Of a stretch of 64,000 bases of DNA, positions 1,537-46,433 are shown piece by piece. The notes under the pieces are model-generated. The model ran no database searches and was not told the origin of the DNA. It worked only from the letters and a program-made list of their open reading frames with translations. The stretch lies in the sequence record MT446416.1; one strand, written 5' to 3'. The DNA is from Escherichia virus TH47. A program made the position numbers and the translations under genes. The stretch's first letter is position 1; every line of letters starts with the position of its first letter.

Positions 1537-3823
1537 ACGCAATAACTTTTTCTACTGCTTTAGTTCGTTTAGGTTTGATTGCCAATTTACCATCAATCAC
1601 ATCAAACGTTACGTTACCACCATTAACCAGAGAACCACACAACATCTCTTTAGCTAGTGGGACACGGATGTTTTGCTCAATAGTGCGTTTCATTGGACGT
1701 GCACCCATTCCAACTTTAACACCATTTGTTGCCAACCACTCACGAGCCGCTTTGGTCAGTGAAACTTTAACTTTGCGGTCTTTGATTTGTTCATTCAAAC
1801 TTCCCATGAACTTATCAATGATGCTGTCAATCGCTTCGCTGCTTAGGTCTTTGAATGTCACAATACTATCGATACGGTTGATGAATTCAGGTGGCAAGAA
1901 TGCTTTAATCGCTTTATCTTGTGCTGTATCACTACCGCTCATCCCAATACTACGCTTGGTTGAATCTGCTGCACCAAGGTTAGTCGTCATAATAACAGTT
2001 ACGTTATTGAAGTAAACAGTTTTACCTTGTGAACCAGTCAAACGTCCTTCGTCCAGAACCTGTAGGAAGGTTAGTAGTACTTTACGATCAGCTTTTTCGA
2101 TTTCATCGAGCAACAGTACTGCATTCGGGAACTGCTCAATCTTGTCGAGTAGCAGACCGTTACCAGAATCGTGACCAACATAGCCTGGAGGTGAACCAAT
2201 CAGTTTAGCAACAGTATGTTCCTGTGAAAACTCGGACATATCGAAACGAATCAGTTCAGAACCAGTTGCATCAGCCAGTGCTTTGGTAATTTCAGTTTTA
2301 CCAGTACCAGATGGCCCAACAAACATGAATGCACCTTGAACACTTGATTTATCACGCAGACCAGCACGAGCTACCATCACGTTATCAACCAGTTTCTGTA
2401 CTGCTTCTTCTTGACCGTATACACGAGAACGGAGTGCATCTGGTAGATTACGCATACGTTCACTTTCAGTGCAAGCAACCACGTTAATATCTAGGTTTGC
2501 GATACCTGCAACAACTTCTTGAATCAGTGCAACAGTGATGATGTTATCATCAGTTTCACGAGAACGTACTTTCGCTGCCGCCGCATCCATTAGGTCGATT
2601 GCTTTGTCAGGGAAGTGTTTGTTCTTCAGGAACTTATCACTTAGTGTAATAACTGCATCCATTGCTTCAGTACTGAACTCTACGTTATGGAAAGTTTCAT
2701 AAGTAGATTTCAAACCATTCACAATCGCACGGGTTTCATCAATTGATGGCTCAACTACATCAATTTTCATGAAACGACGAGTTAGTGCACTATCTTTTTC
2801 GATGTTTTTACGATATTCATCGTAAGTTGTTGCACCGATTACACGAATCTCACCACGAGATAGTGCAGGTTTGAGCATGTTGCTCATATCCATAGAACCG
2901 TTGCTTGCTGAACCAGCACCAACCATAATATGGATTTCATCGATGAACACAATAGTGTTTTCACGTTTCTTCAGTTCTTTTAGTAGGTTATCGATACGTT
3001 CTTCGAACTCACCACGGTACTTAGTACCAGCAGTCAGTGCACCTACGTTCAGAGACAGAATTTCAACATCTTTAAGATGCTCTGGTACTTCACCATCAGC
3101 GATTGCCTGTGCTAGACCATCAATGATTTGAGTTTTACCAACACCAGCTTCACCAGTCAGGATGGCATTCTTCTTAGTCTTACGGGCCAGAGTTTCAATC
3201 AGTGCAGAAAGCTCTTTCTGGCGACCAATCATTGGGTCAAGTTTACCTTCTTTTGCAAGTGCTGTTAGGTTAGTGGTGTAATCTTCTAAACCTTTTTGTT
3301 TGGACGATGGTTGCTGTTGTGCCACTTTTTTCTCCCCAGTTGGCTCATCACTAATGCTTTGAAGGTTGATTCCGTTGTCGATTGCTTCTACGTGCTTCTG
3401 TAGAGTTCGTGCTGCTTCAGTACAAGTGATACCCTCTTCACGCAATGCTGCTTCTAGTGCAGTATTTGGGAAGGACAAACACTCAAACAGTACAAAATAA
3501 GCATCAATTGAGAAATCATCACGTTTAAGTTGCTCAATTACTGATTTCTTAGAAAGTTCCTGAACTACACGGTTCACGAGAAGTGATGTGCGGTTCGCTT
3601 CATCACCATCAGCACTTTTAGGTGCATGTGGGAATGTTGTATTCTTCAGATATGCAATCAAACGACCGTGTAGGTTGTCTGCATCGATGTTCATATCTTC
3701 AAATACTGCTTTGATGCTATCGATTGTCAGTACTGTAGCACTTAGATGGTCAATAGTCAAGAAGGTATGACCCAGAGAAGTTGCCAGTTCGTCGCTTTTT
3801 TTGAATAATTGGGTAAGATTCAT
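1535..3823 (-). CDS. ClpA-like two-domain AAA+ unfoldase (Clp ATPase family)
   Basis: Clp N-domain-like N-terminus; two Walker A motifs (GEAGVGKT, GPSGTGKT) and Walker B motifs (VFIDEIH, LLLDEIEKA); start placed at ATG with AGGAGA RBS (ORF track starts at upstream GTG 3847). Confidence 0.9.
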   Translation of the reverse strand: MNLTQLFKKSDELATSLGHTFLTIDHLSATVLTIDSIKAVFEDMNIDADNLHGRLIAYLKNTTFPHAPKSADGDEANRTSLLVNRVVQELSKKSVIEQLKRDDFSIDAYFVLFECLSFPNTALEAALREEGITCTEAARTLQKHVEAIDNGINLQSISDEPTGEKKVAQQQPSSKQKGLEDYTTNLTALAKEGKLDPMIGRQKELSALIETLARKTKKNAILTGEAGVGKTQIIDGLAQAIADGEVPEHLKDVEILSLNVGALTAGTKYRGEFEERIDNLLKELKKRENTIVFIDEIHIMVGAGSASNGSMDMSNMLKPALSRGEIRVIGATTYDEYRKNIEKDSALTRRFMKIDVVEPSIDETRAIVNGLKSTYETFHNVEFSTEAMDAVITLSDKFLKNKHFPDKAIDLMDAAAAKVRSRETDDNIITVALIQEVVAGIANLDINVVACTESERMRNLPDALRSRVYGQEEAVQKLVDNVMVARAGLRDKSSVQGAFMFVGPSGTGKTEITKALADATGSELIRFDMSEFSQEHTVAKLIGSPPGYVGHDSGNGLLLDKIEQFPNAVLLLDEIEKADRKVLLTFLQVLDEGRLTGSQGKTVYFNNVTVIMTTNLGAADSTKRSIGMSGSDTAQDKAIKAFLPPEFINRIDSIVTFKDLSSEAIDSIIDKFMGSLNEQIKDRKVKVSLTKAAREWLATNGVKVGMGARPMKRTIEQNIRVPLAKEMLCGSLVNGGNVTFDVIDGKLAIKPKRTKAVEKVIA

Positions 3824-42519: not shown

Positions 42520-42572
42520 AAAAAAAGCACCTCATTAATGTTTATATATACATTATTTAGAGGTGCTAATAC

Positions 42573-42746
42573 TTATTTTGAATTATACAAGCAGTACAGG
42601 TATACCAACGGAGTAAAATGTTCTGAATCTATAGCATATATTAACTGTGTAACATATATTCCGTATAAATCTCGACTTTTATCTCGGTACATTAACAATG
42701 AATTATTAAAGTATGGGTCAACCCAGTACTTTATATTATTTAACAT
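42573..42746 (-). CDS. small hypothetical protein
   Basis: short ORF filling a 265-nt gap; start uncertain. Confidence 0.25.
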   Translation of the reverse strand: MLNNIKYWVDPYFNNSLLMYRDKSRDLYGIYVTQLIYAIDSEHFTPLVYLYCLYNSK

Positions 42747-42783
42747 CAATGTATTGTTTCTGTATCCTGATAATTTTAAGCAT

Positions 42784-43161
42784 TTAGCCAACTTTTTCAC
42801 AATTACTTAGTAAGTGTGTGATTACATCGGCAGTGAATGGTCCTAGAACTAAAACTTCTTCTCCATTACCGAAGATACTCAATGGTACAGATTGTTGTCC
42901 TGCTAGATATTCGATTTGTTCTAATTCGAAAATGTCATCAGCAGCATAAACAACCTGTTCCATTTCATTATCTTTAATCCATGACTGCCAATGTTCTTTA
43001 AACTGCTTCGCTTCGTATTCCAGCACATAGTTAGGTGATTCTGGATTGTACTGATGTAGCATTGTCATACCAGCCATGACCAGTTCTTTTGGTGATGGAG
43101 TAGAATCTTTCAGTACTACGATAGCTTGGATAGTTTTAACTTTAACGTTTTGAGCAGCCAT
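42784..43161 (-). CDS. hypothetical protein
   Basis: 125-aa ORF, AGAGGT RBS. Confidence 0.5.
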   Translation of the reverse strand: MAAQNVKVKTIQAIVVLKDSTPSPKELVMAGMTMLHQYNPESPNYVLEYEAKQFKEHWQSWIKDNEMEQVVYAADDIFELEQIEYLAGQQSVPLSIFGNGEEVLVLGPFTADVITHLLSNCEKVG

Positions 43162-43501: not shown

Positions 43502-43978
43502 TTATTTTATAATGTATAAGTGTTTTTCTGCATTAACCAGTCTGTGGTCAATGATTTCTTTGATAACGTTCCAGTTACCACCGCCTAAATCGGCTCCAAT
43601 TTTCGGGAAGTGTACATGAACAGTGCGTTCAACGTTACATAAGTAATTGAGTTGTTTGAAAACATCATCGATTGCATCATAACTCACATACTTAGAACCG
43701 TCATTACCATAGTACTTTTGGGTAATGCAGTTTGCGATAAGCAAATCATCACTTATAGAAGAATATGAAATTTGTCCTGTTCTTAGAAATCCCATTTCCT
43801 TTTCATATGCTTTATAATCATCATATGCCATCGGGTAACGATTTCTTAGTTCTTTTGCAAAACCCGAACCCATCTTACCCTGTGCATTACAACCATGAGC
43901 GATTATATGCAACGCGGTTTGATCATCAGTAACAGTGTTGAACAATTCAAACAAATTACCTAGGTGTTCATGTATCAT
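43502..43978 (-). CDS. macrodomain protein, TARG1/OARD1-like (ADP-ribose processing)
   Basis: motifs GNLF, LHIIAHGCNAQGKMGSGFA and FPKIGADLGGGNW align with TARG1 LAHCISEDCRMGAGIA and MPRIGCGLDRLQW; GGAGAA RBS. Confidence 0.75.
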   Translation of the reverse strand: MIHEHLGNLFELFNTVTDDQTALHIIAHGCNAQGKMGSGFAKELRNRYPMAYDDYKAYEKEMGFLRTGQISYSSISDDLLIANCITQKYYGNDGSKYVSYDAIDDVFKQLNYLCNVERTVHVHFPKIGADLGGGNWNVIKEIIDHRLVNAEKHLYIIK

Positions 43979-44029
43979 TATATTCTCCGAAAAGAAAGGA
44001 CTCTGTAATCAGAGTCCTTAATTTATATT

Positions 44030-44272
44030 TTATTCTTCTTCACCGAATCGAATTTTTTTCAATTCTTTTCGTTGTTTGCGAGCAATGGTACTTTTGTGAA
44101 GTCTATTACCACGTTTTGTGTCTTTCGTGATGTACCATGAATCTTCTGGTGCATTATAATCACAATAACCATCTTCTGTAATCGTCCCTAAGAAAGCAGA
44201 CTTTTTAGGAATGGATGTTTGAGCTTTAGCAGCGAATTGGCCTTTTGCTAATTGTTCACGAAAACTGAGCAT
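44030..44272 (-). CDS. hypothetical basic protein
   Basis: start at ATG with GGGAGA RBS (track begins at TTG 44287). Confidence 0.45.
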   Translation of the reverse strand: MLSFREQLAKGQFAAKAQTSIPKKSAFLGTITEDGYCDYNAPEDSWYITKDTKRGNRLHKSTIARKQRKELKKIRFGEEE

Positions 44273-44317: not shown

Positions 44318-44560
44318 TTATTTAGGGTTGCTCGAAACCTCTACTGAAGCGATGAATGCCAAAATATCATCTTTACTGAAAGCTTCAATAATATAAGCAA
44401 CCGCTTTATCGTACTGTTCTTTCTTAGTAGTGTATTCTTTCATTTTGTGAATTTTACGTTGTGCTTTAACTTTTGCAGCTTCCATATCAGGCATTTTAAA
44501 TTCAACACCCAATGTGTCAGCTAAATGTTTTGCACGAGATGATACTTTATCAATATTCAT
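44318..44560 (-). CDS. hypothetical protein
   Basis: 80-aa ORF coupled to glutaredoxin gene. Confidence 0.45.
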   Translation of the reverse strand: MNIDKVSSRAKHLADTLGVEFKMPDMEAAKVKAQRKIHKMKEYTTKKEQYDKAVAYIIEAFSKDDILAFIASVEVSSNPK

Positions 44561-44808
44561 TAATTCCAGCGACCTTCTTTAAGACCTTCAACGAAACCAG
44601 TACAGCCACCTGGAACGTAAACATCGTTTACGAAAATTTGTGGAACCTGTCGTACTGGCTCGCCACATAGTTCAGATAGTTTAGCACCATCAATACCAGC
44701 GGTAACAATATCGATAAACTCCATATCAAATTTGTTATTTTCACATACTGCTTTTGCAGTGTCGCAGAATTTACAACCAGTAGTGCGACCATAAATTTTA
44801 ACTTTCAT
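44560..44808 (-). CDS. glutaredoxin/thioredoxin-like protein
   Basis: 82 aa with N-terminal CKFC redox motif and Grx-like length; AAGGGAAA RBS. Confidence 0.65.
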   Translation of the reverse strand: MKVKIYGRTTGCKFCDTAKAVCENNKFDMEFIDIVTAGIDGAKLSELCGEPVRQVPQIFVNDVYVPGGCTGFVEGLKEGRWN

Positions 44809-45208
44809 TTCTTTTCCCTTTATTTCGTTGAAACATCGTAACAGCCTTTATTATACTGTTACACATTCGTTCAGTCAAATACTTTTGACAATCTAGTACA
44901 TCAATGTACATGAACTTATCCAATTCTGGGTGACTTCTACCATATCGGTTTGTGTAAGTACTCTTACACTCTAACTCTTCTGGTATAGGCTTATCTTTGG
45001 CTGTATAGAAAAATAAAACTAAACGTTTCCCCTTTCTATACGATACATCACCAAGAAACAGAAGATCATCTTCATCGATTTCATATCCTGTCTCTTCGTA
45101 GCATTCGCGAACAGCAGCCTCTTTAAATGTTTCTGTACCTTCAGTTTTACCTTTAGGTAAGTCCCAGTGATTCTGTCCGTGTTGTATGCCCGATAAGTAT
45201 CTGACCAT
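44798..45208 (-). CDS. Nudix hydrolase (second copy)
   Basis: Nudix box GKTEGTETFKEAAVRECYEETG; short N-terminus, start uncertain (GTG/ATG at 45211/45208); extended -10 TGGTATAAT just upstream. Confidence 0.65.
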   Translation of the reverse strand: MVRYLSGIQHGQNHWDLPKGKTEGTETFKEAAVRECYEETGYEIDEDDLLFLGDVSYRKGKRLVLFFYTAKDKPIPEELECKSTYTNRYGRSHPELDKFMYIDVLDCQKYLTERMCNSIIKAVTMFQRNKGKRNES

Positions 45209-45317
45209 CACGATAAAATATTATACCACAACTATAACGCATAATCTTATCTCTTTATCATCAAGTGATGTTCAGATACTAGTAATTATATCAGAAGATG
45301 TTAACTTGTCCCAGCTT

Positions 45318-46433
45318 TTAGAACATTTGCTTGATTGCTTCAATACGCAATTCAGCAACAAAATCACGAATCTCTGATGTTTGGAGTTCACCATCTTTCA
45401 CTAACTGCTGAATATCAGGTAATTCAACATCAGTATAACGATCATAAACTTTAATAATCAAATCTTCAAGATCAGAATCAATTTCTTTGTTCAAAATGAA
45501 GTTTTCCAGTACTTTGTAAAGGAAATCTTCGCCACCATTGTTTTTGATATTCATCTCCAGTAAGATTTGTCCCATTTCAACGGGGGTCTTCTTACGGAAG
45601 GTTTTAATATCTTCACGGAAACGCTTGATGTAATTACTAAACTTCACGTACTTAACTGGAACCTTAATAGAACCATTAAGTACTGAATCATTATTTACTT
45701 CTTCATTTTCAAGAAGTACTGTCCATAAGAAATATGGTTTATATTCTTCTGTACAATTTGCAGCGATAGCATCAATTAATTCCAGACGTTTCTTGGTAAC
45801 TGGAACTGTAGTAAATGCCTTTTCGTAATAACCAAATTGTACCAGAGTTTTGATAAACTTGGAAGGGTTTTCTTCAGAAAGTGCTTTTTCGAATTCAACA
45901 AAAACACGATCTGGAACTAGATGGTCTAGTTCACCAGTACTAACCATATCTTTACACATTGTCATAGTATCATCATGGATTGTAAAGTCTGAGTAACGTG
46001 TAGCGAAACGTGCCAAACGTAGTACACGCAATGGATCTTCTTTAAAGTGTTCTGATACATGACGAAGTACTTTGTTCTTGATATCAGCTTTCCCGCCATA
46101 AGGGTCGATGTGAATCTGGAGTACTGGATCATACGCTATGCTATTTACCGTAATATCCCTTCTGTATAGATCTTGCTCTAGTGTCACGCCTTTAGTATTC
46201 ACTTCGAAGCCACCGTAGCCAGTACCAGTTTTACGTTCGGTACGTGCCAATGCGTGCTCATTACCCTCTGGACTTAGATACACTGGAAAATCCTTACCTA
46301 CTTGCTTATAGCCAATACTTTGTAAGTACTTAATATCGGATTCGGTAGCACCGACAATGACATAATCTTTGTCTTTTGCACGAATACCCATTAAACGGTC
46401 CCTCACATAGCCGCCCACCAAATACTTTTTCAT
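45318..46433 (-). CDS. tRNA nucleotidyltransferase (CCA-adding enzyme) / poly(A) polymerase head-domain protein
   Basis: N-terminal GGYVRDRLMG, DKDY and RRDITVNSIAYD motifs; GAGGAAGG RBS. Confidence 0.8.
   Translation of the reverse strand: MKKYLVGGYVRDRLMGIRAKDKDYVIVGATESDIKYLQSIGYKQVGKDFPVYLSPEGNEHALARTERKTGTGYGGFEVNTKGVTLEQDLYRRDITVNSIAYDPVLQIHIDPYGGKADIKNKVLRHVSEHFKEDPLRVLRLARFATRYSDFTIHDDTMTMCKDMVSTGELDHLVPDRVFVEFEKALSEENPSKFIKTLVQFGYYEKAFTTVPVTKKRLELIDAIAANCTEEYKPYFLWTVLLENEEVNNDSVLNGSIKVPVKYVKFSNYIKRFREDIKTFRKKTPVEMGQILLEMNIKNNGGEDFLYKVLENFILNKEIDSDLEDLIIKVYDRYTDVELPDIQQLVKDGELQTSEIRDFVAELRIEAIKQMF

Follow-up and report, generated by a model that had tools for sequence, protein, structure and literature searches.

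The gene analysed here occupies positions 43502-43978, on the minus strand, of the window, that is, of the whole stretch of 64,000 nucleotides under study. Its ORF has 158 codons, with the ATG at 43978 and the stop at 43502, and encodes a single-domain macrodomain protein of 158 aa that is assigned to PHROG 335, the T4 Tk.4/AdfM family, and is of the Gln-type, SCO6735/BT1257-like. A Shine-Dalgarno-like GGAG (43985-43988, minus strand) is seen in the sequence itself 6 nt 5' of the ATG. The protein is predicted to be mildly acidic, with a pI of 6.0. The GC content of the gene (0.358) equals that of the window (0.360), and therefore we rejected a recent horizontal acquisition. The window derives from a PBECO4/121Q-type jumbo coliphage, and over 6 kb around the gene it has 85-95% identity to Escherichia phages of 350-385 kb, such as WPEC5, fEgEco12, vB_Ec-M-J and PBECO4. 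The orthologues in related phages are labelled 'phosphatase', 'macro domain-containing protein', 'Appr-1-p processing domain protein' or 'hypothetical protein'. Regarding RNA genes, zero tRNA genes and zero Rfam families were found across the whole window.

Upstream of the gene a scan found a hairpin with a perfect 10-bp stem and a 4-nt loop, followed by a T-tract (43996-44019). Together with 44020-44029 it separates the stop of the upstream ORF, at 44030, from the ribosome-binding site of the macrodomain gene. Read on either strand, the hairpin looks like a terminator, and phage fEgEco12 has it with 100% identity. Ahead of it on the coding strand stands AATATAAATT, a sequence that we take to resemble the T4 late-promoter core TATAAATA. 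The hairpin may serve to terminate transcription, to stabilise a 5' end or as a processing site.

The macrodomain gene stands in a same-strand run that comprises a neck protein gene, two ORFs with no assigned function, the macrodomain gene itself, two small ORFs of the same kind, and the genes of a glutaredoxin, a generic NUDIX hydrolase and a CCA-adding enzyme. All four small ORFs nearest to the gene belong to PHROGs with no assigned function. The ORF at 42784-43161 (minus strand) has an fEgEco12 orthologue labelled 'aminoacyl-tRNA hydrolase'; as the ORF has no Pfam or NCBIfam match and its PHROG (14786) is functionless, this label looks unsupported. The gap of about 260 nt from the neck-protein gene to the next gene (42520-42783) has no annotated gene in the relatives and is overlapped only by short, unconserved-looking ORFs. 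The glutaredoxin, NUDIX and CCA-adding tRNA nucleotidyltransferase genes form a tight run upstream of the macrodomain gene (44560-46433, minus strand), and in the relatives a thymidine kinase gene follows about 9 kb further on, a loose echo of the tk/tk.4 proximity in T4. A second NUDIX gene of the relatives (fEgEco12 g324, L003 29356-29820) is beside the tail sheath stabiliser gene. If collinearity with fEgEco12 is assumed, it would fall at about 2935-3399 of the window, which would make two NUDIX genes in 64 kb.

The nearby NUDIX protein is a generic one, whose best, weak matches are YtkD, MutT and RppH, and not an ADP-ribose pyrophosphatase. For this reason, and because the four nearest small ORFs fall in PHROGs with no assigned function and the neighbours of distant homologues are entirely different, we found no support for the idea that the NUDIX, glutaredoxin and CCA enzyme genes are conserved operon partners of the macrodomain or form an ADP-ribose metabolism module with it. 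In a metagenomic T5-like contig (L006, 3414-5500) a 43%-identical homologue is found in an early-gene island with a dCMP deaminase, cpYpsA (PF12694), an HD_4 hydrolase and Gad2 (PF26128, the anti-Gabija family), and a T5 A2-like gene is near it; the island may be a counter-defence gene cluster. In a second metagenomic phage contig (L010, 767-7108) a homologue of 39% identity is flanked by PDDEXK/ERF recombination genes on one side and a DnaB-type helicase gene on the other, a placement consistent with a DNA-directed role in replication. In these two contigs the module keeps company with anti-defence and DNA-replication genes. As the distant homologues are in such different places, the macrodomain gene is a mobile orphan module. 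The orphan context is established directly: neither DarT nor any other ADP-ribosyltransferase lies beside the gene, here or in the two distant contigs, and the ORFs neighbouring the macrodomain gene carry no ADP-ribosyltransferase (ART) domain. Furthermore, the annotation of the window-equivalent region of fEgEco12 shows neither an ADP-ribosyltransferase nor a NADAR.

Fold and class of the protein

The macrodomain assignment of the 158-aa protein is genuine. The Pfam Macro profile (PF01661) matched it over profile positions 2-116 of 118 with 20.3 bits (E=5.7e-4), slightly below the gathering threshold of 22 bits, and a precomputed match to the same profile is present in many of its homologues. 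PHROG 335, which is labelled 'phosphatase', matched with E=7e-46. A single-sequence search of the PDB returned BT1257 (1e-15), SCO6735 (3e-11), yeast Poa1p (2e-6) and DarG macrodomains (8e-4 and 8e-3), and TARG1 was absent among its matches. When the PDB was searched with a family profile built from an alignment of 36 homologues, the order was the same, with BT1257 at 3e-26, SCO6735 at 3e-20, Poa1p at 5e-16 and DarG at 1e-14, and TARG1 (3e-12) and ALC1 (1.5e-3) were newly gained. The bit scores on the family profile were 93.9 for BT1257, 84.7 for T4 Tk.4, 74.3 for SCO6735, 58.6 for Poa1p, 58.2 for Mtb DarG, 49.5 for TARG1 and 49.2 for PhiKZ gp104; TARG1 is described as the lowest-ranking of the class members compared in this way.

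An AlphaFold2 model made on the 36-sequence alignment, from which the T4 row had been left out, was confident (pLDDT 94.1, pTM 0.90). The Foldseek ranking obtained with this model was as in the sequence searches, with SCO6735 third at a TM-score of 0.77. The protein folds into the three alpha/beta/alpha layers of a macrodomain and has two Gly-rich loops for ADP-ribose binding, and its nearest relatives in sequence and structure are in the ALC1-like class (TARG1, DarG, SCO6735, ALC1) and not among the MacroD-, PARG- or macroH2A-type proteins. Both the fold and the class are thereby established. The earlier note had called the product a TARG1/DarG-type macrodomain and, as the PDB searches, AlphaFold2 and Foldseek agree, its assignment to the TARG1/DarG structural ('ALC1-like') class was correct. 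The HMM search and structural comparison, of the kind that it had proposed, ranked the Gln-type proteins BT1257 and SCO6735 ahead of DarG and TARG1. These two are the nearest solved relatives, with 23-26% identity to both, and the sequence places our protein beside them, in the Gln-type branch of the ALC1-like class.

DarG was the only match in the defence and naming libraries (PADLOC 1.2e-10, NCBIfam 3.7e-8). The DarG models match by their macro portion only (19-136 of 329 and 20-140 of 338 positions for PADLOC and NCBIfam), and the NCBIfam score was 33 bits against a cut-off of 250 bits. DarG and PhiKZ gp104 have a catalytic Lys in an F-P-T-K motif (Lys80 of DarG), where the phage protein has a Gln. 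In DarG, furthermore, a DarT-binding domain forms the C-terminal part and a darT gene lies alongside; the 158-aa single-domain protein has neither. With the catalytic Lys, this domain and the neighbouring darT all missing, and with a score below the cut-off, it is not a DarG.

The glutamine column and the binding loops

Regarding the active site, we mapped residues with hmmalign onto the family profile, using TARG1 and Mtb DarG sequences identical to their PDB entries, and counted conservation in the macrodomain protein plus 120 homologues (n=121). Gln87 (codon 43718-43720, minus strand) falls at the column of Lys84 in TARG1, Lys80 in DarG and the essential Gln85 in SCO6735. In this column there is a Gln in our protein, T4 Tk.4, BT1257 and SCO6735, a Ser in Poa1p, and a Lys in DarG, PhiKZ gp104 and TARG1. 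Gln87 is invariant (121/121), and so is Asn31, the last residue of the H28-G-C-N31 motif (43886-43897, minus strand). Asn31 is the counterpart of Asn27 in SCO6735, Asn22 in DarG and Asn23 in PhiKZ AdfM, and His28 that of His24 in SCO6735 and His23 in Poa1p. The column of Asp125 in TARG1 is occupied by Gly132, with Gly in 105 and Ala in 15 of the 121 sequences.

Human TARG1/OARD1 relies on the dyad K84/D125, whereas the phage protein has Q87/G132 in these columns, and therefore we ruled out a TARG1-type Lys/Asp dyad and a TARG1/OARD1-like mechanism. The earlier note had reported, by eye, the Lys and Asp positions used for catalysis. Actually, the Lys next to Gln87 (K88) is a Lys in 22 sequences and a Glu in 48, and D130 is an Asp in 45 and a Gly in 54 of the 121, so that these were off-register, non-conserved residues. 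The Gly-rich ADP-ribose loop that it described is genuine, and there are two of them. Loop 1 (G34-K-M-G-S-G39; 43862-43879, minus strand), the first ADP-ribose/phosphate-binding loop, aligns with C38-G43 of TARG1 and G25-G30 of DarG, and its G34, M36 and G39 are each kept in at least 116 of the 121 sequences. Loop 2 (P125-K-I-G-A-D-L-G-G-G134; 43577-43606, minus strand) is the diphosphate-binding loop, and contains Gly132.

The residue correspondences with SCO6735 of Streptomyces coelicolor (PDB 5E3B) are established in the same alignment: Q87, N31, H28 and the loop glycines correspond to its Q85, N27, H24 and G128. SCO6735 and Bacteroides BT1257 (PDB 2FG1/2AFC) share with the phage protein the Gln at the position of TARG1 K84, the Gly-rich PB loop, the conserved Asn and His within H-x-C-N and, in a long 'mobile' loop, a conserved Lys (K96). 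Both are cellular, basic proteins (pI 8.7-9.9), whereas the phage protein has a pI of 6.0. BT1257 is functionally uncharacterised, and SCO6735 is the closest solved relative with biochemistry. SCO6735 lacks Lys84/Asp125 of TARG1 and Lys80 of DarG, and its activity is abolished by Q85A/E, nearly gone in N27S and lower in G128E, a mutant of the conserved loop Gly, while K34E almost abolishes the activity on DNA (PMC9411070). It cleaves thymidine-linked ADP-ribose on DNA faster than DarG or TARG1, rescues DarT toxicity in E. coli and S. coelicolor, and is proposed to follow a water-mediated mechanism in which Gln85 positions the distal ribose (PMC9411070). This lysine-independent mechanism of Gln-type hydrolases is so far only a model.

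Q87 and N31 thus match the essential Gln85 and Asn27 of SCO6735, a correspondence which we count in favour of a putative hydrolase. Two other positions differ: Gly29 (119/121) replaces Val25 of SCO6735, a residue that is described as specific to SCO6735 and is Ile in BT1257, and Ser38 (110/121) replaces its DNA-contacting Lys34, so that the Val/Ile25 and Lys34 of SCO6735-type proteins are both missing. The ALC1 macrodomain also has the Gln (PMC9411070) and therefore the Gln alone is no proof of catalysis. A protein that only binds ADP-ribose could, like a sponge, sequester immune signals derived from ADP-ribose (Thoeris gcADPR or His-ADPR), or it could be a stoichiometric block of DarT2. Such a binder could draw on the shared Gln of ALC1, on catalytically dead SCO6735, which still inhibits DarT through interaction (PMC9411070), and on Thoeris ThsA, which binds His-ADPR with a macrodomain. 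Nevertheless, the residues needed for hydrolysis by SCO6735 are invariant in the family, which is furthermore distant from the ALC1 and ThsA macrodomains, and we regard a non-catalytic role as very improbable.

The 'phosphatase' label in GenBank and PHROG goes back to another idea, namely that of a Poa1p-like 'A1pp phosphatase' or ADP-ribose-derivative enzyme (an ADP-ribose 1''-phosphate phosphatase or an O-acetyl-ADP-ribose deacetylase) that would work together with the NUDIX and tRNA enzymes encoded close to it. Yeast Poa1p (PDB 6LFQ) has a large insertion ahead of the PB loop and a Ser at the Q87 column. Of its residues probed by mutation, as named in PDB titles, H23 aligns with the conserved H28, but S30 (the residue changed in PDB 6LFT) falls on K35, a variable column with K in 47, V in 35 and R in 33 of the 121 sequences. 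Besides, the scores against SCO6735 and BT1257 are higher than against Poa1p, the NUDIX is generic, with no ADP-ribose pyrophosphatase as its best match, and the neighbours are not kept with the macrodomain in distant relatives. We therefore find a Poa1p-like function quite unlikely, and the 'phosphatase' label of the PHROG 335 phage family is probably misleading.

Macrodomains of T4 and PhiKZ

Homologues were detectable in 1,499 of 50,697 phage records (3%), and in about 49 records the protein identity of the copy is at least 60%. The carriers include T4-like, Felix O1-like, Vi1-like, Pseudomonas and Rheinheimera phages. T4 Tk.4 belongs to the same family: PHROG 335 matches it with E=2e-66, BLASTP aligns it with our protein at 28-30% identity (E=9e-13), and hhalign of the macrodomain family against Tk.4 gives a probability of 99.5% and E=3.3e-23 over 140 columns. 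Membership in the Tk.4 family is therefore established. The T4 homologue is located directly 3' of vs. The T4 reference (NC_000866) names the gene tk.4 and describes it as 'phosphatase; contains A1pp phosphatase motif'; the copy that we aligned has 97% identity to it.

The two proteins are alike in being single domains of about 155 aa with the motifs H-G-C-N, M-G-S-G, T-Q and P-x-I-G-A-x-x-G-x-G-N-W and a Gln at the catalytic column, and in being orphan phage genes with no DarT neighbour. Both also have G and S at the positions of Val25 and Lys34 of SCO6735. However, the loop after T-Q is 4 residues shorter in Tk.4 (G-P-N-F-E-Y against G-N-D-G-S-K-Y-V-S-Y), and the neighbourhoods differ, Tk.4 being found in Tevenvirinae and our gene in a PBECO4-like jumbo phage. 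In its mildly acidic pI (6.0) our protein resembles the functional phage AdfMs Tk.4 (5.9) and PhiKZ gp104 (5.05), a point in favour of an anti-DarT2 role.

The evidence that Tk.4 acts against DarTG2 is genetic and comes from a preprint of November 2025. On a DarTG2 host, tk.4 was the single significant transposon hit in T4, and a clean tk.4 knockout makes T4 sensitive to DarTG2; T4 thus requires the gene to plaque on such hosts, for which it was renamed adfM, anti-DarT factor Macrodomain (10.1101/2025.11.20.689424). PhiKZ gp104, also named AdfM, removes DarT2 ADP-ribose from DNA in vitro and rescues DarT2 toxicity, and its N23A mutant has reduced activity (Cell Reports 2026, PMC13309987). Translated from the published construct, gp104 is a Lys-type, DarG-like protein with an FPTK motif. 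By phmmer, Tk.4 and gp104 share only about 6.5 bits, and on the macrodomain-family profile gp104 scores 49 bits against 85 for Tk.4. Since gp104 is Lys-type and DarG-like and Tk.4 is Gln-type, the name 'AdfM' spans two macrodomain lineages, and by sequence our protein belongs to that of Tk.4.

Proposed function

Taken together, we consider it moderately probable that the gene product is an orphan antitoxin-like ADP-ribosyl glycohydrolase macrodomain which guards the phage against DarT2-type toxins by a Gln-dependent, lysine-independent reaction. Its substrate, its catalysis and its action against DarTG2 would be those of the relatives, from which we infer them. During infection, the host DarT2 would ADP-ribosylate thymidines in single-stranded phage DNA and so block replication. 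The phage macrodomain would then bind the ADP-ribose by both Gly-rich loops and hydrolyse the base-ribose bond in the lysine-independent way proposed for SCO6735, with Gln87, held by Asn31, positioning the distal ribose. The products would be unmodified DNA and free ADP-ribose. The earlier note had suggested a reversal of ADP-ribosylation-based defence; this functional idea is well supported by homology, as PHROG 335 holds T4 Tk.4 and SCO6735 rescues DarT toxicity, although the TARG1/DarG-specific mechanism that went with it is not borne out. Against a role directed at DarT2 we count the low identity to T4 Tk.4 (about 28-30%) and to BT1257 and SCO6735 (23-26%), the genetic, preprint nature of the Tk.4 evidence, the replacement of Lys34 and Val25 of SCO6735 by Ser38 and Gly29, the presence of the Gln in ALC1 as well, and the Pfam score slightly under its threshold.

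At 25-30% identity, the substrate specificity cannot be read from the sequence, and the protein could thus be a hydrolase for an ADP-ribosylation other than that of DarT2, such as uracil-linked RNA, Glu/Asp-linked protein, the products of other ART defences or competitor toxins, or those of the phage's own ARTs. SCO6735 hydrolyses PARP1 automodification on protein too (PMC9411070) and acts on U-ADPr RNA (PMC13036486), and RNA-targeting ART defences exist, for instance CmdTAC. However, SCO6735 is inactive on 2'-OH RNA ADP-ribosylation, and macrodomain and ARH hydrolases are inactive on guanosine-ADPr RNA (PMC11833690; the text of this paper is inconsistent on the activity of SCO6735 toward 5'-phosphate ADPr). 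Furthermore, the phenotype of the T4 homologue is specifically on DarTG2 (10.1101/2025.11.20.689424), and the window-equivalent region of the relative has no annotated ART. We therefore judge another substrate to be unlikely. A wider proposal, which we consider unlikely, is that the macrodomains of PHROG 335 (H-G-C-N ... M-G-S-G ... T-Q) form a phage clade of their own, very widespread, whose members hydrolyse base-linked ADP-ribose without a lysine. As both Val25 and Lys34 of SCO6735 are absent from them, their chemistry or nucleic-acid recognition is perhaps unlike that of every characterised enzyme. Perhaps they act on thymidine-ADPr DNA as well as on uracil-ADPr RNA, and one small enzyme would then protect against several ART-based defences.

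Returning to the anti-DarT2 hydrolase, the observed/expected ratios of TNTC motifs in the window were 0.93-1.17 under a second-order Markov model. These motifs are not depleted, and thus the phage DNA is an available DarT2 substrate. We also considered avoidance of the DarT2 target and rejected it: TCTC was at 0.57 of the mononucleotide expectation but at 0.96 under the second-order Markov model.

Fold, family and label are already on record, as is the action of the T4 member against DarTG2, and our protein is a fairly divergent addition to them. No new question is opened, because publications of 2025-2026 had put forward both the idea of an orphan, antitoxin-like macrodomain and the assignment of the family. 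If the proposed function is true, PBECO4/121Q-type jumbo coliphages have a ready counter to DarTG2, and this would be relevant to the prediction of host range and to the choice of therapeutic phages against E. coli strains with DarTG2. The protein is also a divergent data point for the Gln-type hydrolases, with about 30% identity to T4 AdfM and a longer mobile loop.
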